Below, in pieces: positions 601 through 26,130 of a stretch of 26,130 nucleotides of DNA (position 1 is the stretch's first letter; each line of letters starts with the position of its first letter). Made by a program: the position numbers and the translations under genes. The stretch is from the NCBI GenBank assembly GCA_016196885.1, contig JACPWU010000062.1:1-26130 (forward strand), read 5' to 3'. Under the pieces are notes generated by a model. It was not told the origin of the DNA, did no database searches, and worked only from the letters and a program-made list of their open reading frames with translations. This DNA is from Chlamydiota bacterium (lineage in GTDB: Bacteria > Auribacterota > JACPWU01).

Positions 601-3824
<3,224 letters not shown>

Positions 3825-3906
3825 AGGCCGTACTTCGTGCTTCGTGCTGCGTACTTCGTTGTTGACAAACAACGAAGCACGAAGTACGCAGCACGAAGCA
3901 CGGCCT
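3825..3906. terminator. 82-nt imperfect palindrome built from ACGAAGY heptads, filling the gap between convergent ahcY and lptG; probable bidirectional terminator/stabiliser
   Basis: Left arm AGGCCGT ACTTCGT GCTTCGT GCTGCGT ACTTCGT TGTT, loop GACA (3864-3867), right arm AACA ACGAAGC ACGAAGT ACGCAGC ACGAAGC ACGGCCT. It spans from 1 nt after the ahcY stop into the lptG stop codon. There is no U-tract. Confidence 0.55.
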
Positions 3907-4988
3907 TACTTCAACCTCATCATCAGAATCATCCCCAGCCCTCCAAAAATTCCATTCGCAAGCCAGCTTGCCAGAAGAGGCGGGAGATACCCTTGTTTTC
4001 CCAGGGCGCTCAAGGTAAATTGCAGTCCATAGTAGGTCAGGGTGAGGAGAATGGTTTTGCCCAGGACGGGAAGCGCTCCTCCTCGCGTGATGGTAAGTCC
4101 GATGGGGACCACGACGAGCACCAAGATAAAACAGATCCAGGGTGTGGCCAATTTTTCATAAAGTTCGACGCGTTGCGAGGCGGGAATTCTTCCCCCGTAT
4201 TTCTTTGAAAGGGAATTTTTCAATTCTGAATAATTCATTTGTTCGGATGCCTTTTCTTCTCGAATCAGGTCAAGCGGTGATTCATAAATTCGGGTCTTCC
4301 TTTTGTAAAAAACTTCGGGATCATGTGTGATGTCTCCCGTTTCACTGTACCTGACAATGGTTCCATTGAAGAACCACCATTCGTTGTCCAGCCAGCGCCC
4401 TGTCTGGGCGCGGATGAGTTTGTTCATCGTGCCGTCTGGGTTCAAATAATGAACCTGAACATCCTGTGCTATGTTGGTTTTGGGATCCAGTTTATGAATA
4501 AAAAGGGCGTAGTTCTCCAGCGCATTTCCATAGGTTAAATCTTCATACCTTTGAGAATTTTCGTCTGTTTCCTTCTCGGAAAAAATTTTCTTGAAAATTT
4601 CGCTTTGCAATCGCGTTTGAGGAATGACCTCTTCATTCAAATAAAAGAAAAGGGCACTGAGGACCCATCCCAATAAAAGGAATGGGACGGCAATTCTCTT
4701 AGAAGAAATCCCAGCGGCCCTCATGCCGATGATTTCATGATGTCTCGTAAAATTTCCCAAAAGATAAATCAACGCAAGCACGAGAGAAAAAGGACAGATT
4801 TCAATGTAAATGTTAGGAAGCATGAAAAGGTAATAGCGTAAAATGTCCAACCAGGGTACATGTGATTTTAAGAATTCATCCATGTGCTCAAAGAGGTCTG
4901 CGATCAGATAAAGAAGGAAAAGGGTTAGAATACAATAGAAGAAGGGCAGAATAAATTCTCTTAAAATGTAACGATCAATGATTTTCAT
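3906..4988 (-). CDS. lptG: LptF/LptG-family LPS export ABC permease (second gene of pair)
   Basis: 360 aa. The N-terminus MKIIDRYILREFILPFFYCILTLFLL is typical of the YjgP/YjgQ family. It has multiple TM helices with a large periplasmic loop in the middle. The F versus G assignment rests on gene order only. Confidence 0.75.
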   Translation of the reverse strand: MKIIDRYILREFILPFFYCILTLFLLYLIADLFEHMDEFLKSHVPWLDILRYYLFMLPNIYIEICPFSLVLALIYLLGNFTRHHEIIGMRAAGISSKRIAVPFLLLGWVLSALFFYLNEEVIPQTRLQSEIFKKIFSEKETDENSQRYEDLTYGNALENYALFIHKLDPKTNIAQDVQVHYLNPDGTMNKLIRAQTGRWLDNEWWFFNGTIVRYSETGDITHDPEVFYKRKTRIYESPLDLIREEKASEQMNYSELKNSLSKKYGGRIPASQRVELYEKLATPWICFILVLVVVPIGLTITRGGALPVLGKTILLTLTYYGLQFTLSALGKQGYLPPLLASWLANGIFGGLGMILMMRLK

Positions 4989-6301: not shown

Positions 6302-6439
6302 TTTGCTATGAAAGTGAAGCTCATTCTGTAGTCGCCCCATTTATGGGGCTGCCCGATGAATCGGGCGACTACAAAAAAAGCATGATGGGGAGAACTTTCA
6401 TCGCACACGATGATCTCGTAAAGATCATTGAAATTGATA
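6302..6439 (+). repeat. type-B composite repeat, copy 1 (45-nt REPIN-like core 6328-6372)
   Basis: Nearly identical over about 137 nt to 21270-21406. It lies in the divergent lptF/comF intergenic region. Confidence 0.85.
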
Positions 6440-7228: not shown

Positions 7229-7338
7229 ATCAGTCGTGAGTCGTGAGGGGTGAGTCGTGAGTAAAAAAATAATACCTTTAAAACTCACGACTCACGACCG
7301 ACGACTCACAACTGCTTTCAAACTCACGACTCACGACC
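7229..7338. repeat. heptad (GTCGTGA / ACTCACG) inverted-repeat structure with a third, competing arm
   Basis: Left arm is 4 units GTCGTGA GTCGTGA GGGGTGA GTCGTGA (7233-7260). An A/T loop follows. Right arm is ACTCACG ACTCACG ACCGACG ACTCACA (7283-7310). A second right-arm copy, ACTCACG ACTCACG ACC, lies at 7322-7338. Confidence 0.75.
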
Positions 7339-9683: not shown

Positions 9684-9755
9684 ACGTTCAAAAGTTCAAA
9701 GGTGACGCGAAGCGTCATCCTGAGTATCACGAAGGATCTTATCAATAAAGTTTTT

Positions 9756-9893
9756 GGCATATGCACTTGATTCCCCTTAGATAGCAAGCGCCATGGCAAG
9801 AAGTTGTAGTCGCCCCATTCATGGGGCTGTGCCCCTTGCATAGGTTTGCCCGATGAATCGGGCGACTACAAAGGGGAATCAAGTGCATATGCC
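9756..9893 (+). mobile_element. 138-bp MITE with perfect 23-bp TIRs and an 11-bp target-site duplication, carrying a REPIN-like core (9806-9869)
   Basis: The TIRs GGCATATGCACTTGATTCCCCTT (9756-9778) and AAGGGGAATCAAGTGCATATGCC (9871-9893) are exact reverse complements. The direct repeat ATAAAGTTTTT lies at 9745-9755 and 9895-9905. Confidence 0.8.
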
Positions 9894-9910
9894 TATAAAG
9901 TTTTTTACAT

Positions 9911-14014: not shown

Positions 14015-14638
14015 ATGGATGGCGTGCCCAGCTCTCTCAGTGATGAAGAATTAATTCGTGAGACTCTTGACGGAAACGATGAGGCATTTGAGGAGCTGGT
14101 GCGCCGTCATAAAACGTATGTGATGCGCGTGGTGTATCGTTATGCGCGGGACGAGCATGAAGTAGACGATTTGGCACAGCAGGCTTTTTTGAAGGCTTAT
14201 TTTTCTCTCAAGAGTTATCGAGCCAAGGCTCCTTTTCAACACTGGCTAAGCCGGATTGCAACGCATGTGGCCCTGGATCATCTGCGCTGGCGTCATCGAA
14301 AAAAAGAAGATTTTTTCAGTGAGATGACAGATGAGAATACGGAATTGTTAGAAACGATACTCACGGATGCCTCCGAAGAAAAGTTAGAGGATGATCAAAC
14401 AAAACGAGAGGCTCGAGAACTTTTAGAAAAGGTGTTGGCTAAGTTAACTTCGCAGGACGAGTGGTTGATGAGGGCTGTGGAGTTGGACAATAAAACGATC
14501 AAAGAGATTTCTGAAATGACAGGCTGGAGCATTTCAGCGGTGAAGGTGAGGCTTTTTCGGGCTCGCAAGAAGATGAGGAAGGTTTTGGAGAAGCTACTTA
14601 CTAATGTAGCGGGTCCTGTCCCTCCTCACCCCCACTGA
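14015..14638 (+). CDS. ECF-type RNA polymerase sigma-70 factor
   Basis: Region 2 (AFEELVRRHKTYVMRVVYRY...DDLAQQAFLKAY...WLSRIATHVALDHLR) and region 4 (KEISEMTGWSISAVKVRLFRARKKMRK). The last ~10 codons are encoded by a palindromic element. Confidence 0.9.
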   Translation: MDGVPSSLSDEELIRETLDGNDEAFEELVRRHKTYVMRVVYRYARDEHEVDDLAQQAFLKAYFSLKSYRAKAPFQHWLSRIATHVALDHLRWRHRKKEDFFSEMTDENTELLETILTDASEEKLEDDQTKREARELLEKVLAKLTSQDEWLMRAVELDNKTIKEISEMTGWSISAVKVRLFRARKKMRKVLEKLLTNVAGPVPPHPH

Positions 14639-14705
14639 CGGCATCGTCCCGATGGAATCGGGACTGCTGGCGCTCAGTGGGGGACCCCCAGTCGGGTCAC
14701 CCGCT
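14606..14705. repeat. ~100-nt palindromic element with a central REP-like hairpin, overlapping the sigma-factor 3' end
   Basis: Outer pairs are AGCGGGT (14608-14614)/ACCCGCT (14699-14705) and CCCCCACTGA (14629-14638)/TCAGTGGGGG (14674-14683). The central hairpin GTCCCGAT-GGA-ATCGGGAC (14646-14664) resembles core hairpin B (GCCCGATGAATCGGGC). TTTAT follows. Confidence 0.6.
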
Positions 14706-14735
14706 TTTATGTTGTAGTTGATAGGAGAAGTTAAT

Positions 14736-15047
14736 ATGAAAACAAACAAACTCGATCAATTAGAAAAAATTCTATGGAACTCAGCTCGGGATCAAAAAAT
14801 TTCCCTTCCTGAAGAAGGTTTTGAAAGAAGGGTGATGAGGCGCATTGAACAGGCGAGAAAAGAAAAGGCCCCGAGTTTTTTAGAATTGCTGGGGACCTTG
14901 TGTTGGCGCTGGATGCCGGTCGCAGCCGGTTTTCTCATCGTGTTGGGCGCATGGAACATGAACAGTGCCTCAGATGGATCCGAGTGGTGGATGCTTTTGG
15001 CAGGGAAAGATGCGTCATGGGGATGGTTAACACAGGGAGGATTCTGA
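14736..15047 (+). CDS. putative single-pass membrane anti-sigma factor
   Basis: Sits immediately after the ECF sigma gene. AGGAG at 14723-14727 precedes ATG 14736. Has a cytoplasmic charged N-terminus and one TM helix (WMPVAAGFLIVLGAW). I recognised no family motif. Confidence 0.4.
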   Translation: MKTNKLDQLEKILWNSARDQKISLPEEGFERRVMRRIEQARKEKAPSFLELLGTLCWRWMPVAAGFLIVLGAWNMNSASDGSEWWMLLAGKDASWGWLTQGGF

Positions 15048-20344: not shown

Positions 20345-20554
20345 AGTAGGCTGCTGAAAAAGGCCCATCTGACAATGCCTCCCACTTCGCTCCCTTGTGC
20401 GGCGTACCCTAGCCTGGATTTCTCATCACGAGCTCAAAATGCATACAGCTTGTCATCCCCGAGTGTTTTAATCGGGGATCCAAAAACACCTAAAACTCTG
20501 GATTCCCGCTTACCCCACAGGGGCTATTTCGTTGAAACCTGCGGGAATGTCTAT

Positions 20555-20683
20555 GGAAAAGGTGGTCTCCCCAAGTATTTAAACTTGATGAGCTCTGAAC
20601 ACGAAGTGTTCGGCTATTATGAAGGGGAGAAGAATGGTTGACCCAAACGTCATCCAACATAAGAAAAGGAGACCACCTTTTCC
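20555..20683. repeat. 129-nt element closed by a perfect 16-bp inverted repeat (MITE-like or structured RNA)
   Basis: GGAAAAGGTGGTCTCC (20555-20570) and GGAGACCACCTTTTCC (20668-20683). Internal hairpins are CAAGT/ACTTG (20572-20587) and CTGAACAC-GAA-GTGTTCGG (20595-20613). Confidence 0.6.
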
Positions 20684-20706
20684 AATTTACCGACAGGTGA
20701 TGATGA

Positions 20707-20851
20707 GAAACGGCCATGACTTTCAGTCACAAGGGGGGATGAAAATCACCCTTGTAGTCGCCCCATTTATGGGGCTGCCCGATGAATCGGGCGACTACAA
20801 TTCATCATAACTTATTGTATAAGAATGAGTAAAGACTATTTTCAGATGAAA
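20707..20851 (+). repeat. type-A composite repeat, copy 2 (45-nt core 20754-20798)
   Basis: Same shells as 372-548. The left-shell hairpin is replaced by a different hairpin, TGACT-TTC-AGTCA (20717-20729). Confidence 0.85.
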
Positions 20852-21013
20852 TGCGGGCTAGAACGTACGCCTCCGCGGTCGCTCGTGGGCGCGCTTCCCT
20901 CTGGGACCTTTTTGAGCAGCCTGTCAAGATCAAATGTTTCAGCGACTTGATATTTTTTTCTTGATATACTCTCAGAACTATGAAAAAAGCTTGGGAACTG
21001 GAACCTTAAGAAA

Positions 21014-21232
21014 ATGAAAATTTTTGTGAAGGTGAAGCTTCGTGCCAAAGAATGCCGGGTAAAAAAAATAGATGAAAATCATTTTGAGATAGCTGTGAAA
21101 GAGCCTCCGATTGAAGGTAGGGCGAACGTGGCCGTTACAAAGGCGTTGGCGGAATTTTTTGGGAGAGCTCCCTCCAGAGTGAAAATTCTCTCAGGCTTTT
21201 CATCCAGGCAAAAAATTTTTGAAATAGGGTAA
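21014..21232 (+). CDS. DUF167 (YggU-like) family protein
   Basis: 72 aa. KVKLRAKECRV...IAVKEPPIEGRANVAVTKALAEFFG...VKILSGFSSRQKIFEI matches the DUF167 pattern (ApPveGkAN ... G.tSR.K). Confidence 0.8.
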   Translation: MKIFVKVKLRAKECRVKKIDENHFEIAVKEPPIEGRANVAVTKALAEFFGRAPSRVKILSGFSSRQKIFEIG

Positions 21233-21242
21233 CACGGTTTTT

Positions 21243-21263
21243 ACGAAGTACGATGTACGAAGG
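21243..21263 (+). repeat. three ACGAAGT-family heptads (ACGAAGT ACGATGT ACGAAGG)
   Basis: Same unit family as 3825-3906 and 18341-18437. Sits directly upstream of type-B copy 2. Confidence 0.5.
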
Positions 21264-21269
21264 ACGGTT

Positions 21270-21406
21270 TTTGCTATGAAAGTGAAGCTCACTCTGTAGT
21301 CGCCCCATTTATGGGGCTGCCCGATGAATCGGGCGACTACAAAAAAAGCATGATGGGGAGAACTTTCATCGCACACGATGATCTCGAAAGATCATTGAAA
21401 TTAATA
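21270..21406 (+). repeat. type-B composite repeat, copy 2 (45-nt core 21296-21340)
   Basis: Differs from 6302-6439 at three positions that I can see. Its right end overlaps the moeB-like stop codon (21401-21403). Confidence 0.85.
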
Positions 21407-22549
21407 CGTCGCCATGTTGGGATCAATATCAGTGGCCCAGGCATGAATCCCGCCTTTGAGACTTTTCACCTTCTTAAAGCCCATTTCCTTGAGGAATTTC
21501 GCCGCGTTCAGGCTTCTCACCCCGTGATGGCAATGGGTGACGATCTCATCGGCCGTGTCTAGTTCATTCACGCGCTGAGGTAAATCAGCCAAGGGAATCA
21601 AAACGGATTCTTCCAGATGGCAGATGTCATATTCGTGAGGCTCACGGACATCTACGACAACCACCTTTTTCTTGCTGTCGAGCGTTTTCTTGAGTTCCCG
21701 AGCTGTGATTTCTAGGTCAGAGGCCTCTTTCTGGGTTTCTTCTTGGCCGCGGCCGATTCCACAAAATTCCTCGTAATCAATGAGGCTTGTGAGGGTTGGA
21801 TGATCTGAGCAGATGGGGCAATTCGGGTCTTTCCGGAGCTTCAGCTCCCGAATCTTCATTTCAAGGGCGCTGATAATCAGAAGACGGCCGATCAAGGGTT
21901 CCCCTTGGCCCAAAATAAGTTTAATTGTCTCCGTCGCTTGAATGCAGCCGACAAGGCCTGGAAGAATGCCAAGGACTCCGCCTTCGGCGCAACTGGGCAC
22001 CATCCCGGGAGGAGGAGGCTCTGGATAAAGGCAACGGTAGCAGGGGCCCCGTTCGGCGGCAAAGACAGAGGACTGGCCTTCAAAGCGGAAAATGCTGCCA
22101 TAGACATTGGGCTTTTTCAAGAGGACGCAGGCATCGTTGACCAAATAGCGCGTGGCAAAATTGTCTGTGCCGTCCACCACAATGTCGTAGGGTTCGATCC
22201 ATTGGATGGCGTTGTCAGAAGAAAGTCGCTCTTTATAAATTTCTACATCAATGCTGGAGTTGAGCGAGAGAAGTCTCTCTTTGGCCGATTCAGCCTTAGA
22301 CTCTCCGATCTTGGCTTCACTGTGAATGATTTGGCGCTGGAGATTTGAAAAATCCACCACGTCAAAATCCACAATACCCAAATGGCCCACGCCGGCGGCC
22401 GCCAGATAAAGGGCCAGCGGAGAGCCAAGGCCTCCAGCTCCGATGCAAAGGACCCTTGCGTTACAAAGCTTCTCTTGACCCTCAATGCCCACTTCGGGCA
22501 TGATCAAATGACGGCTGTATCTTGCGATCTGATCTTTGCTTAATGGCAT
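21401..22549 (-). CDS. moeB: MoeB/ThiF-family adenylyltransferase with C-terminal rhodanese domain (MoeZ/MoeBR type)
   Basis: YSRHLIMPEVGIEGQEKL, the nucleotide loop CIGAGGLGSPLALYLAAAGVG, zinc-binding CYRC...CPIC pairs, and a rhodanese active-site loop HCHHGVRS. Confidence 0.9.
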   Translation of the reverse strand: MPLSKDQIARYSRHLIMPEVGIEGQEKLCNARVLCIGAGGLGSPLALYLAAAGVGHLGIVDFDVVDFSNLQRQIIHSEAKIGESKAESAKERLLSLNSSIDVEIYKERLSSDNAIQWIEPYDIVVDGTDNFATRYLVNDACVLLKKPNVYGSIFRFEGQSSVFAAERGPCYRCLYPEPPPPGMVPSCAEGGVLGILPGLVGCIQATETIKLILGQGEPLIGRLLIISALEMKIRELKLRKDPNCPICSDHPTLTSLIDYEEFCGIGRGQEETQKEASDLEITARELKKTLDSKKKVVVVDVREPHEYDICHLEESVLIPLADLPQRVNELDTADEIVTHCHHGVRSLNAAKFLKEMGFKKVKSLKGGIHAWATDIDPNMATY

Positions 22550-22671
22550 AAATCACTCCTAAAATTTTGACTGTAGCAAAAGCGGTTTTCCACGTCACAT
22601 CGTCATTTAGGGTGATTTTATAGCGTTCTTGAGTAAAATTAGCAAGGATTTTGAGATGGATGTAGGGAAAA

Positions 22672-23631
22672 ATGATTCCACACAGAATTTTAGGTAAAAC
22701 AGCACTTAGCATCTCCGAACTGGGTTTCGGAAGTTGGCCCATCGGGGGAGGGAGTTATGGGCCTGTGGAGGATGTTCAGTCTCTTGAAGCCTTGCGAGAA
22801 GCGATGGCTCACGGTGTCAATTTTATAGACACGGCCGATATTTATGGAAAGGGTCATAGCGAGTCTTTGATTGGAGAAGTTGTTGAGGGAAGGGATGATG
22901 TTTTTCTGGCGACAAAGGCAGGATGGGATTTCAGCCATGGGCTCGTTCGAGCCAATTTTGATGTGAGTTATCTAGCGTTTGCTTTGGAGGAGAGTCTTCA
23001 GCGTTTGAAGAGAAATTCAGTCTCCCTTTTTCAATTGCATAATCCGCCGGTTGAATTGACCCAGAATAAGTTCTTATTAGAGTCACTTAGGAAGTGGAAA
23101 GAGAAAGGCAAGATTGATTTTTACGGCGTTTCTGTTCACGGACCCGAAGAGGGAAAAATATGGATTGAAAATACCGATGTTCAAGTGATTCAAATTGTTT
23201 TTAATCTTTTGGATCAAAGACCGCTCAGAGATTTCTTTGGCTTGGTGCGGGAGAGGGGAGTGGGGATCATTGCTCGGGAGCCTTTGGCTTGTGGGATGCT
23301 GACGGAGAAATATTCTAAGGATGTGGTATTTCCCAAAAATGATCATCGCCGTCGCTGGCCTAAAGAAAAGATGGAGCTGGATTTAGAGAAAATACGGCGC
23401 ATTCGGTCTTGGGTGGGTCTTGAAGACATTCCTCTTTCTCAATTGGCATTAGAATTTGTGCTTTCCTTCCGGGAGGTTTCTATCGTGATTCCAGGGATGA
23501 AGACGCCTCATCAGGTCCGGTCCAATTTAAAGGCGTGTGAAGAAAAACATTTGAATCCAGAATTGATTCAGAAGATTTGCAAGCTTTATCGAGAGGATGA
23601 GATTTTTTCCAGAGGGCTTTATCGGAATTGA
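22672..23631 (+). CDS. aldo/keto reductase family oxidoreductase
   Basis: LGFGSW..GG, NFIDTADIYGKGHSE, the HNPP motif region, and IPGMKTPHQV near the C-terminus. Confidence 0.9.
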   Translation: MIPHRILGKTALSISELGFGSWPIGGGSYGPVEDVQSLEALREAMAHGVNFIDTADIYGKGHSESLIGEVVEGRDDVFLATKAGWDFSHGLVRANFDVSYLAFALEESLQRLKRNSVSLFQLHNPPVELTQNKFLLESLRKWKEKGKIDFYGVSVHGPEEGKIWIENTDVQVIQIVFNLLDQRPLRDFFGLVRERGVGIIAREPLACGMLTEKYSKDVVFPKNDHRRRWPKEKMELDLEKIRRIRSWVGLEDIPLSQLALEFVLSFREVSIVIPGMKTPHQVRSNLKACEEKHLNPELIQKICKLYREDEIFSRGLYRN

Positions 23632-23687
23632 GGCTTTGCTGGCGGGGGTTTTTGATTTATAATCTTGGCTTAATAAAGGGAGGGGAT

Positions 23688-24218
23688 ATGAAAAAATTTC
23701 AGGTGATGATTGGAGTCATGGGAATATTTTTTGGGGTTTTAGGGATGTCTTATTCACGAGAGGTGAAAAAAGCGATGGCCGTTTTAAATCCAACCCAGGG
23801 AAATCAAGTTCAAGGGACGATCTCCTTTATGGCTGTGGAGGAGGGGGTTCAGGTGATCGCGGACGTAGATCGCCTAACGCCTGGGAGGCATGGGTTTCAT
23901 ATTCATGAAAAAGGGGATTGCAGTGCGCCCGATGGTTCTTCGGCCGGGGGACATTTTAATCCTCACGCCATGTCTCATGGAGGGCCTATGGACGCGATGC
24001 GCCATGATGGGGACATGGGAAATATTGTTGCGGATGAAAAGGGGCATGCCCATTTGGATTATGTGGATTCGAAAATGACTTTGAGCGGGGAAAATTCTAT
24101 TGTTGGGCGGGGGGTGATTCTCCATGCCCAGGAAGACGATTTCAAAACTCAACCGACAGGAAATGCAGGGGCCCGTGTGGCGTGTGGAGAGATTGAGGCA
24201 GTTGAAGAGAGTAGATGA
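23688..24218 (+). CDS. sodC: periplasmic Cu/Zn superoxide dismutase
   Basis: AAGGGAGGGG precedes ATG 23688. Signal peptide is present, followed by HGFHIHEKGDCS, GGHFNP, HDGDMGN and GNAGARVACGEI motifs. Confidence 0.9.
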   Translation: MKKFQVMIGVMGIFFGVLGMSYSREVKKAMAVLNPTQGNQVQGTISFMAVEEGVQVIADVDRLTPGRHGFHIHEKGDCSAPDGSSAGGHFNPHAMSHGGPMDAMRHDGDMGNIVADEKGHAHLDYVDSKMTLSGENSIVGRGVILHAQEDDFKTQPTGNAGARVACGEIEAVEESR

Positions 24219-24901
24219 AAAAAGGTTTTTTCGTTACAGGGACAGACACAGGCGTGGGCAAGACCCTTGTGAGTTGTGTCTTGGCAAGGATTTTAGGCCG
24301 TTGGGGTTCTGTGGGCGTGATGAAGCCCTTTGCCTCGGGGAACCGCCAGGATGCCTTGCGACTCCAGGGGGCTGCCCGAAGAGATGATTTAACCTTGGAT
24401 GAGGTTAATCCGATTTATTTTAAGGAACCTCTGGCCCCTTACAGCGCCAGGGGTTTTGGGAAAAAGGCGATTGATTTAAAAAAGGTTCTGAAGTCCTATC
24501 AGAGGATTTCGGCCTCTTCTGATTTTATGATTGTGGAAGGGATCGGCGGACTTCATGTGCCTTTAAGCGGGGTTTTAGATGTTGCGGATCTGGTGTTGAA
24601 ATTAAATTTGCCTCTTTTGATTGTGACGCACTTACGGCTGGGAACACTCAATCATACCTTGCTCACAGTGGATTATGCTCGTCAAAAAGGTCTTCAAATC
24701 AAGGGCCTCATTTTTTGCGAGTCGAGAGTGGCAAAGGATTGGGCTTCGAAAACAAATCCGCAAGCGCTGCAGCGGTTAACGCAGCTTCCCCTTTTAGGAC
24801 ATATTCCCTGTTTAAAAGGTCGTTTTGGAGAGAAGGTTGAGAAGGCTGTGAGAGAGAATTTTATTTCTTTGAAATGGCTTAGAAAGTGGGATGTAGAATG
24901 A
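24215..24901 (+). CDS. bioD: ATP-dependent dethiobiotin synthetase
   Basis: FFVTGTDTGVGKT P-loop, VEGIGG, and the LNHTLLT region. Its ATG overlaps the sodC TGA (ATGA). Confidence 0.9.
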   Translation: MKKGFFVTGTDTGVGKTLVSCVLARILGRWGSVGVMKPFASGNRQDALRLQGAARRDDLTLDEVNPIYFKEPLAPYSARGFGKKAIDLKKVLKSYQRISASSDFMIVEGIGGLHVPLSGVLDVADLVLKLNLPLLIVTHLRLGTLNHTLLTVDYARQKGLQIKGLIFCESRVAKDWASKTNPQALQRLTQLPLLGHIPCLKGRFGEKVEKAVRENFISLKWLRKWDVE

Positions 24902-25905
24902 AATCTATTTTAGGATCTTATTTGATTTCCATTTTGGGTTTACTTTTTTTATGGGGCCTGGTGTTGGATTTTATTTTTCTTGCCAAAAGAAAGTATGCGG
25001 CCGAAAAGGTAGGTGTGGGGGATGCCTTCTGGGGCTGGAGAGACGCGGCCGCAGTCGTTCTCTTTTTTGTTCTCTTTGAGTTTGTCTTGGAAGGGATGAG
25101 TCATTTTATTTTTAAGACTTTTGTGATTTCACCTCAAGAGAGAGGACGGATCGCTTTTTTTGCAAATTCTGGGCTGGAGGTTGCGACGGTCCTTTTCTTG
25201 TGCTTCCTTCTGGGCCGACGCTATGGTTTAAAGTGGAAAACATTGGGGTTGGCCCTCATTTCTCATCACATTTCTGCTACGAGCGCCGATTCCGCCTCGT
25301 CTCTCCGTGCAGACTCGGTCGGCCACGCTCAACATGCTGTAAAGTATGCCTCACATGGCCTCGGTCGTCTTCCTCGCATCCAAAGGCGGACTCAGGCGTT
25401 CCTCGCGACGAAATCTGATGAGAAATGCGGGCTAGAGAAACCCTTTTCTTTTTCAACGGCAAAGGAAGGAGTGCTGGCTTATTGCGGCGCTCTTCCTCCT
25501 TTGGTGGGGGTAGGACTCGCGACCCAGTTTTTAGGCCGAATCTGGAAAATTCCTTTAAAGCCTCAGGTTCCGCTTCAGATTTTACAGGGGGAGACCTCGA
25601 TAGCAGCTTGGGCGGTGATGGGTTTTGTGATTGTTATTTTGGTTCCTTTCTTAGAAGAGATTTTTTTTCGTGGTTTTCTTTATGCCCTCTTGAGAAAGTC
25701 CTTTGGGATGGGGAAGGCGATGGTTTTAAATTCTCTTCTTTTTTCAAGTTTACATTTTAGTTTTTTGGCCTTTCTTCCCATTTTTTGCATTGGTTTATTC
25801 TTGGCTTATCTTTATGAAAAGACGGGATCTCTTTTTGCGCCAATGGTTTTTCATGCGTTGAATAATACCGTGGCCGTTTTGCTGGTGGTGTTTTTAATGA
25901 AATGA
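24898..25905 (+). CDS. CPBP-family (CAAX-type) intramembrane metalloprotease carrying an internal palindromic insertion
   Basis: Motif 1 EEIFFRGFLY, motif 2 FSSLHF and motif 3 FHALNN are all present in the C-terminal half. ATG 24898 overlaps the bioD TGA. The ORF opens at GTG 24886. Confidence 0.85.
   Translation: MKSILGSYLISILGLLFLWGLVLDFIFLAKRKYAAEKVGVGDAFWGWRDAAAVVLFFVLFEFVLEGMSHFIFKTFVISPQERGRIAFFANSGLEVATVLFLCFLLGRRYGLKWKTLGLALISHHISATSADSASSLRADSVGHAQHAVKYASHGLGRLPRIQRRTQAFLATKSDEKCGLEKPFSFSTAKEGVLAYCGALPPLVGVGLATQFLGRIWKIPLKPQVPLQILQGETSIAAWAVMGFVIVILVPFLEEIFFRGFLYALLRKSFGMGKAMVLNSLLFSSLHFSFLAFLPIFCIGLFLAYLYEKTGSLFAPMVFHALNNTVAVLLVVFLMK
25258..25426. repeat. 169-nt imperfect palindrome inside the CPBP ORF, read through in frame
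   Basis: Arms 25258-25323 and 25361-25426. The terminal 17 nt match 16/17 in inverted orientation (ATTTCTCATCACATTTC vs ATTTCTCATCAGATTTC). Matching blocks CGAG, CGCC, GA.TCCGCCT and GGCC follow. Confidence 0.65.
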
Positions 25906-26016
25906 AAAGAATAATGAAATAACTCCCCCAACCCCAGCAAGGGAGGCTGCACTGCTAGTCTCAGTACAAAGCCGACTGCGGTAGTAGATGTTTTTTTACG
26001 TCTGTCCTCTTGTTAT

Positions 26017-26130
26017 GAAACATTCATGCCGACTGAGGTCGGCACAAAGGGGGATGAAAATCACCCTTGTAGTCGCCCCATTTATGGGGCCGTTGCATGG
26101 ACTGCCCGATGAATCGGGCGACTACAAGTC
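26017..26130 (+). repeat. type-A composite repeat, copy 3 (core 26069-26125, 13-nt spacer), truncated by the window end
   Basis: The left shell is identical to copy 1 from GAAACATTCATGCCGACTGAGGTCGGCAC through GTAGTC. Confidence 0.85.

Follow-up and report, generated by a model that had tools for sequence, protein, structure and literature searches.

A gene for a CPBP/Rce1-like intramembrane protease, located near the end of a 26,130-nt stretch of DNA (contig JACPWU010000062.1 of assembly GCA_016196885.1, deposited as Chlamydiota bacterium; hereafter the window), contains a palindromic element of 181 nt that leaves its reading frame open and accounts for 61 additional residues in the predicted product. 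This segment is very probably one copy of a non-autonomous, hairpin-forming transposable element of the miniature inverted-repeat kind (MITE) that has inserted in frame and survives within genes in the same way as the Rickettsia palindromic elements (RPEs). Judged by its sequence, the element appears to represent a new MITE family, RPE-like in behaviour and without sequence similarity to the RPEs. Some copies are intergenic, others are read in frame as part of ten or more unrelated protein families, and elements with the same ends are present in DNA of other phyla.

Insertion of the element in the CPBP protease gene

The product of the interrupted gene is a 100% match to P0001, annotated as 'CPBP family intramembrane metalloprotease [Chlamydiae bacterium]'. 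Comparison with related proteins places the additional residues precisely. Among orthologues, the six nearest (270-275 aa; identity of 36-45%) can be aligned with the protein on both sides of one clean 61-column gap, and the stretch from K112 to Y195 comprises 84 residues in the window protein versus 22-25 in all 64 homologues (23 in nearly all). In these alignments, the segment is shown to be an insertion relative to homologues; a lineage-specific insertion of ~56-60 aa had been expected in the preliminary description of the locus, and the size found is 61 aa. The gain of 61 codons corresponds to 183 nt, equivalent to the 181-nt core of the element and a 2-nt TA. The segment had also been described as starting exactly on a codon boundary, which is true both of the position then given (25258) and of its real start at 25252.

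The insert lies where it was originally placed, between GLKWKTLGL and the following helix, and is hydrophilic within a hydrophobic protein as then stated (mean Kyte-Doolittle hydropathy of -0.27 vs +0.94 for the rest). It contains 8 K/R and 4 D/E residues, and its predicted tryptic peptides include ADSVGHAQHAVK and YASHGLGR. The Pfam domain PF02517 is recognized downstream at residues 238-325. The catalytic motifs EEIFFR, FSSLH and HALNN are intact, in agreement with the first reading of the sequence, and residues E253, E254, R258, H286, H319 and N323 are unchanged across 65 aligned homologues (alignment A5). In an AlphaFold2 (AF2) model based on this 65-sequence alignment, the helical core is confidently predicted (mean predicted local distance difference test score (pLDDT) of 84.7, mostly >90), and the blocks spanning residues 111-180 have pLDDT values of 48-68 and are flanked by helices 79-109 and 185-215. 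According to the positive-inside rule, K/R-rich loops of membrane proteins face the cytoplasm. The K/R-rich loops of this protein are the native parts of the insert-bearing loop and loop 30-46, both on the same side of the membrane; hence, the insert loop probably faces the cytoplasm.

Structure of the palindromic element

The segment was initially delimited as a 169-nt imperfect palindrome at 25258-25426. Its palindromic nature is borne out, but these limits fall 6 nt short at each end, with the element extending from 25252 to 25432 (181 nt; Table 1). The terminal inverted repeats (25252-25274 and 25410-25432) are 23 nt long and 91% complementary, and within the window each arm holds one of the only two occurrences of the 23-nt end sequence, for which 100 shuffles give an expectation of 0.00. 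The element region folds as a single long hairpin: the predicted RNA fold of a 196-nt stretch has an energy of -81.3 kcal/mol, compared to -60.0 +/- 4.4 kcal/mol for shuffled sequences (z = -4.89; 0/200 shuffles as good). Across the family, the core is 178-181 nt long, the terminal inverted repeats span 23-26 nt, and the ends are invariant over 18-22 nt in eight copies. Similarity between copies starts at GCCCGCATTTCTCATCAC and stops at GATGAGAAATGCGGGC (GCCCGC...GCGGGC), with flanks that are otherwise unrelated save for TA; the element ends are GCCCGCATTTC, and a parent element would be bounded by GCCCGCATTTCTCATCA...TGATGAGAAATGCGGGC. The window copy deviates from the family by three changes in its left end (CTAGCCCGC to TTGGCCCTC), after which the reading frame stays open.

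The dinucleotide TA is present at 7/9 left ends and 10/11 right ends of the copies. The base outside the left TA is C in 7/8 copies of the window's metagenome-assembled genome (MAG; alignment A4), and that outside the right TA is G or A. This pattern is consistent with insertion at TA within a CTAR context, accompanied by a putative duplication of the TA as target site. The stem of the hairpin is well maintained, with 95.6% of cells in the copy alignment paired and four pairs changed on both sides compared to 1.7 expected (a level reached by 3/500 shuffles), in a small sample that mostly contrasts two subfamilies. The only open frame of the core yields a 60-aa module that has no Pfam match, and the element is too small to encode a transposase.

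Copies of the element in chlamydial and other genomes

Further copies of the palindrome in the genome, the search for which had been proposed from the window alone, are present both inside and outside open reading frames (ORFs). Eight full copies with 88-97% identity were identified in ~100 kb of one MAG (GCA_016178005.1), namely the window copy (locus L006), two in L001, three in L002 and one each in L007 and L008. The window itself is 100% identical from 20668 to 26130 to the start of contig JACOUD010000018.1 of this assembly. Additional copies comprise an internally deleted one in L006, one that lies within miaA of another species (L009/L010), and those of metagenome contigs L004 and L005. 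The loci were mostly retrieved via proteins that carry the encoded module, together with three small ORFs obtained through a profile.

The same 26-nt right end (CGAAATCTGATGAGAAATGCGGGCTA) is also borne by elements of a Terriglobia MAG (L003) and of two metagenome contigs (L004 and L005); a scan with the 23-nt end returned one match in the genome-contig collection (the Terriglobia MAG) and two in metagenome contigs, and the source MAGs, which it did not return, are presumably absent from the genome collection. The Terriglobia element (CAVXFF010000001.1; L003 2328-2533) is ~205 nt long and shares the 26-nt end but has a different interior, whereas that of metagenome contig Ga0182025_1324173 (L005 1131-1311) is a full-length, GC-rich homologue (nhmmer E = 4e-20). 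Both are situated in GC-rich, apparently non-chlamydial DNA. Conservation of the ends across phyla is expected of a transposase binding site, and the sequences point to a transposase/MITE lineage that would have crossed phyla.

The internally deleted copy (L006 14989-15096; ~108 nt) consists of the arms only, in reverse orientation, and is located ~9.7 kb downstream of the CPBP gene on the same contig. A GDPD-family gene (14257-15036) owes to it its stop codon and the last ~15 residues of the product (LARFSHQISSRERQV). This copy adjoins a second Rce1-like gene on the minus strand (L006, from 15104), which is ~10 kb downstream of the CPBP gene. Three 'hypothetical proteins' of 74-102 aa, P0121 (L007 10001-10225), P0123 (L008 10001-10249) and P0122 (L002 2864-3172), are made up almost entirely of the element frame; sited between real genes, they are probably spurious gene calls due to the element.

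The encoded module in unrelated proteins

A first protein search with the CPBP sequence as query also retrieved Fic (P0062), CBM9, periplasmic binding and hypothetical proteins of Chlamydiae MAGs, which have only the module L[AT]RISHHIS...SDSVGHAQHTVKYASHGLGRLPRIQ...LATKSDEKCGL in common with it. A profile built from five peptides returned only three small ORFs, being limited by its word index, and an exhaustive phmmer search was therefore used. Against 1.84 billion representative proteins, the 62-aa module of the window yielded 14 proteins. They include CPBP, CBM9, Peripla_BP_2, a 694-aa GT4-like protein, two proteins of ~6000 aa, lipoate-protein ligase (LplA), MiaA, a HesB-type Fe-S assembly protein and small ORFs; the Fic protein derives from the separate search and stands outside these 14. 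Altogether, no fewer than ten unrelated families of proteins carry the module in frame. All phmmer matches that bear names are from the Chlamydiae MAGs HYS07, HYS08, HYZ66 and HYZ67, with the remaining four from SRA or ENA assemblies. Besides the HYZ67 assembly, these MAGs are GCA_016178005.1, GCA_016178055.1 and GCA_016196915.1. Shared proteins suggest that these four MAGs represent two species, each assembled from two samples. The reverse-orientation peptide (LARISHQISSRERQ...) gave no candidate in a set of 5.8 billion proteins.

Insertion sites are compatible with the host fold in the three proteins examined. In addition to the loop of the CPBP protein, the periplasmic binding protein has ~61 extra residues between segments aligned to the solved structure 4m7o, and MiaA has 58 more residues than the solved structure 2qgn, with the insert again between aligned segments. 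The modules in miaA, lplA and the Fe-S gene are more diverged, at 48-67% peptide identity, and this divergence suggests that in-frame copies can persist for long periods. A shared ancestral insertion was considered for the two ~6000-aa proteins (P0125 and P0126) and rejected, as they align over the module alone and their other weak matches are not collinear.

Reading frame and selection

Six-frame translation of all copies identified frame +0 (CTA GCC CGC = L A R) as the frame that is open in every copy whose length is a multiple of three; the 178-nt copy L002_2896 is additionally open in three other frames. The core plus 2 nt amounts to 180 or 183 nt, free of stops in frame +0, in three genic copies and two copies called as small ORFs. 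In three others, it amounts to 181 or 182 nt and contains stops in frame +0; two of these copies are intergenic and the third, in L008, lies under a called small ORF. Variable alignment columns number 21, 18 and 18 over the three codon positions, and this even spread indicates that the peptide is not under purifying selection. On this evidence the encoded peptide would be a passenger, with no selection acting on it.

Table 1. Coordinates of the element, its host gene and related fragments in the window.
Feature	Position	Strand	Basis and remarks
Palindromic element core GCCCTCATTTC...GAAATGCGGGC	25252-25432	+	181 nt; inverted repeat, fold and limits where 8-9 aligned copies stop matching; nhmmer score 204, E = 1e-61
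Left terminal inverted repeat	25252-25274	+	Degenerate copy: GCCCTC here vs GCCCGC in family consensus
Right terminal inverted repeat GAAATCTGATGAGAAATGCGGGC	25410-25432	+	Inverted-repeat search, end counts and copy alignment
Left flanking dinucleotide TG (putative target-site duplication)	25250-25251	+	TA in 7/9 copies (alignments A4, A6)
Right flanking TA (putative target-site duplication)	25433-25434	+	Copy alignment; 181 + 2 = 183 nt = 61 codons
Peptide module LALISHHIS...KSDEKCGL	25249-25434	+	62 codons of element and flanks; common to unrelated proteins
CPBP/Rce1-like intramembrane protease gene carrying the insert	24898-25905	+	ORF from ATG 24898, 335 aa and stop
Left-end-like fragment CTAGCCTGGATTTCTCATCAC	20409-20429	+	18/20 matches, 12/12 exact; within repeat nest
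Right-end-like fragment AAATGCGGGCTAGAA	20848-20862	+	15/15 matches; same repeat nest

Origin of the insertion and alternative explanations

In the proposed scenario, the element would have landed in the loop of the CPBP protein that joins transmembrane helices 3 and 4 and presumably faces the cytoplasm, probably at a TA in CTAR context that was duplicated in the process, and would by chance have fallen in its stop-free frame, one of six. Because the insertion is in the stop-free frame and adds 183 nt, or 61 codons, the CPBP gene stays open, and its product would gain a 61-aa hydrophilic, net-positive loop for which the AF2 placement is of low confidence. More generally, copies would land anywhere, and those that survive in genes would need the right orientation, frame and length together with a permissive loop, and would then be read as protein. 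A DDE transposase of the IS630/Tc1-mariner or IS5 (IS427-group) type would move the element in trans; in ISfinder, IS630/Tc1-mariner elements and the IS427 group of IS5 typically have TA or CTAG as their target. The protease would still work with its insert.

Several observations weigh against this scenario. No autonomous element or transposase with matching ends was found in the DNA reached; with respect to a parent insertion sequence, a 34-nt end query gave chance-level matches against plasmids and a scan of viral contigs gave none. No closely related empty site is present at the DNA level among the sequences compared. The TA flanks may belong to the inverted repeat rather than to the target, given that copy L002_2896 has CTGG...CCAG, a symmetrical change without a direct repeat, and the L005 copy is flanked on both sides by TAAAC in place of TA. 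One open frame of six is also unsurprising for 60 codons of such composition (roughly estimated at ~0.4), and, with most loci reached through module-bearing proteins, the density of copies and the share of genic ones are biased. Finally, the L008 copy, which is counted as intergenic, shares 97% identity with that of the window; the insertion is therefore recent, and the intact ORF is in turn weak evidence of a working protease.

This last point underlies the alternative that the recent insertion has already crippled the protease, leaving a pseudogene in waiting in which the open frame reflects too little time for decay rather than selection. Besides the near-identity to the L008 copy, the second Rce1-like gene 10 kb downstream could buffer the loss, and expression could be lowered by an mRNA hairpin of -81 kcal/mol. 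In Correia elements, stems of this kind are cleaved by RNase III. Such inactivation is nevertheless unlikely: the catalytic residues and all helices are intact, AF2 pLDDT values exceed 90 on either side of the insert, and the three left-end changes of the window copy keep the frame open, while the diverged copies (48-67%) of the housekeeping genes miaA, lplA and the HesB-type gene likewise stay in frame.

A more far-reaching form of the preferred in-frame MITE reading is regarded as quite unlikely. It would have protein-coding palindromes arise convergently in unrelated intracellular lineages (Rickettsiales and Chlamydiota), here from a phylum-crossing MITE lineage that turned translatable and adds loops of ~60 aa to housekeeping enzymes and membrane proteins. 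Some of these loops, such as the His-rich, positive, cytoplasmic loop of the CPBP protein, would since have gained a role, or the mRNA hairpin would regulate expression.

It is distinctly improbable that the hairpin is instead a functional RNA or DNA signal (RNase III site, attenuator or protein-binding site) that spread due to its function and not through selfish transposition. The compensatory changes in the stem could be taken as a sign of such a function, but mostly split two subfamilies and hence represent few events. Similarly, the identity of the 26-nt ends in the Terriglobia MAG and a GC-rich metagenome contig despite differing interiors would fit a signal, but is equally what a transposase binding site would give. 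Where the copies lie relative to genes, and in which orientation, is not consistent, the stem lacks a following T tract, and the element has no Rfam match at a useful score. Against Rfam 15, the best match overlapping the element is a CD-box snoRNA model (16.6 bits vs a gathering threshold of 38; E = 0.71), the top score is a miRNA model just outside the element (18.6 bits vs 80), and nothing in the whole window attains a gathering threshold.

Two specific signals were considered separately. A hammerhead ribozyme or other known RNA, suggested by CUGAUGAG and GAAA in the right arm, is ruled out by Rfam, with no hammerhead among the matches. An intrinsic terminator formed by the element is rejected given the lack of a T tract 3' of the stem and a terminator scan at background level.

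There is very little chance that recombination has spread the 60-aa segment as a true domain or linker of proteins, with the palindrome incidental to it, and the present data largely refute this. The module is always in the same frame in proteins and has a high content of His, Ser, Arg and Lys that could hint at binding. Set against this are the frameshifts and stops of the intergenic copies, the even variation over codon positions, the terminal inverted repeats and TA flanks of the DNA, the truncated reverse-orientation copy that forms the C-terminus of the GDPD gene product, and the low pLDDT of the module and lack of any Pfam domain on it. An assembly artefact (a repeat-induced chimera or collapsed repeat in the gene), raised as a possibility in the preliminary description, is scarcely credible even though repeats do break these assemblies, as at the HYS08 contig that begins in a repeat nest at window 20668: the protein with the insert is present in identical form under two NCBI accessions, which their number ranges appear to assign to MAGs HYS08 and HYZ67, orthologues are collinear with both halves of the gene, precisely 61 codons have been added, and miaA shows the same pattern on contigs of two further assemblies.

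Other repeats of the window

The termini of the element were reported to recur in an island at 20.4-20.9 kb, and fragments resembling both ends are present there in the proper relative orientation (Table 1). They are embedded in a repeat nest (20348-20922) bounded by an outer 19-nt inverted repeat (20348-20366 / 20904-20922), which includes a GTAG-tagged doublet of repetitive extragenic palindromic (REP) sequences, a perfect 17-nt inverted repeat (20554-20570 / 20668-20684) and a 60-nt repeat. Interpretation of the island as another complete copy or as a longer relative of the element was rejected, since the match is confined to the end fragments and other repeats form a mosaic in between; the best reading is that of an element copy that has decayed or been invaded, not of a second intact one. 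The HYS08 contig starts inside the nest, which therefore breaks assemblies.

GTAG-tagged REP inverted doublets (TGTAGTCGCCCCATTTATGGGGC / GCCCGATGAATCGGGCGACTACA) are located at 421-498, 6326-6375, 9804-9872, 20752-20800, 21294-21343 and 26066-26128 of the window, and exact 48-nt copies of this family also occur in L002, L006 and L007. Such doublets, akin to REP doublets forming hairpins (REPINs), would imply a REP-associated tyrosine transposase (RAYT) in the chlamydial genome. A composite repeat of ~180 nt has three copies, all intergenic (369-548, 20699-20851 and 26014-26130), with the window ending within the third. It is built from a hairpin (GCCGACTGAGGTCGGC), followed by GGGGGATGAAAATCACCC, a REP doublet and a conserved tail (...TATTTTCAGATGAAA). 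Long near-perfect intergenic hairpins are found at 3824-3907, 7231-7314 and 9744-9905, two of which consist of short reiterated motifs (CGTGCTTCGTGC... and GTCGTGAGTCGTGAG...) and the third of 35-nt arms around a REP doublet; these may be terminators or further repeat families. At its beginning (1-300), the window starts inside a histidine-kinase-like ORF that ends at ~265 in ...ACGGGCTAGACC, akin to the GGGCTAG end of the element, with the composite repeat next to it. The 3' end of this gene may have been remodelled by repeats.

Significance and comparison with known systems

The hosts of the element include a polytopic membrane protease and core enzymes, among them MiaA and lipoate ligase. 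The family offers a natural experiment on the tolerance of protein folds to loop insertions of 60 residues and on the origin of new peptide segments, as well as on whether the small effective population size of intracellular bacteria favours in-frame elements. In practical terms, the element yields spurious small ORFs, distorts homology searches (a CPBP query leads to Fic, CBM9 and binding proteins) and breaks MAG assemblies.

Among known repeats, REP sequences and REPINs are GTAG-tagged palindromes mobilized by RAYT transposases (PMC3733652). The present element resembles them as a palindromic repeat, and a REP-doublet family is abundant in the same window; however, it has neither a GTAG nor a CGTC end tag, is 181 nt long compared to 20-40 nt for REP sequences, and has inverted repeats at its exact termini. 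It is similar in architecture to the Correia elements of Neisseria and to MITEs derived from IS630/Tc1-mariner or IS5 (IS427-group) elements, which are 100-200 nt long, have terminal inverted repeats of ~25 nt and TA flanks in a CTAG-like context, and form a long hairpin when transcribed. Correia elements differ in being mainly intergenic and in acting on transcription and RNA processing.

In-frame fusions to proteins are documented for other MITEs, including ERIC, BOX, QMITE1 and QMITE2 of Coxiella, and the MITEs of Anabaena (PMC10969869, PMC5896051, PMC2229807). In common with these, the chlamydial element is small, multi-copy and equipped with terminal inverted repeats, and occasionally gives internal or C-terminal residues to its host; the L006 copy supplies C-terminal residues and a stop to the GDPD gene much as QMITE2 does in Coxiella enhC. 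The cases reported for these MITEs are sporadic, whereas internal in-frame insertions make up a large share of the known copies here and span at least ten host families, placing the element closer to the RPEs.

The RPEs of Rickettsia (RPE-1 to RPE-10) are described, as summarized in a review on MITEs, as palindromic elements in frame in proteins (Ogata et al. 2000 Science, 2002 Genome Res, via PMC10969869). The analogy with them drawn at the outset holds for behaviour but not for membership. Both are palindromic repeats of 100-200 nt that are intergenic as well as in frame in many unrelated genes, including housekeeping genes; both encode a conserved peptide without known function, inserted in loops or between domains where checked; and the known members of the host phylum are obligate intracellular bacteria, as in the rickettsial case. 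In contrast, the chlamydial element is found in Chlamydiota and the RPEs in Alphaproteobacteria, and the former is bounded by clear terminal inverted repeats of 23-26 nt with flanking TA and has relatives with the same ends in other phyla. None of the proteins matched by the module among 1.84 billion is named Rickettsia or Wolbachia, in a comparison made at the protein level; the element has no sequence relationship to Rickettsia proteins and is therefore not a member of the RPE family.

So far, the in-frame survival of selfish palindromic DNA in many proteins has been regarded as peculiar to Rickettsia, with a lesser counterpart in Wolbachia. For the latter, Ogata and colleagues are said to have reported protein-coding palindromic repeats in 2005. 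A 2024 review of MITEs only speculates that in-frame survival occurs outside Rickettsia (PMC10969869), and no report of such an element in Chlamydiae was found in the full-text literature. The chlamydial case is a clear second instance of this behaviour, independent of the first and in another phylum.

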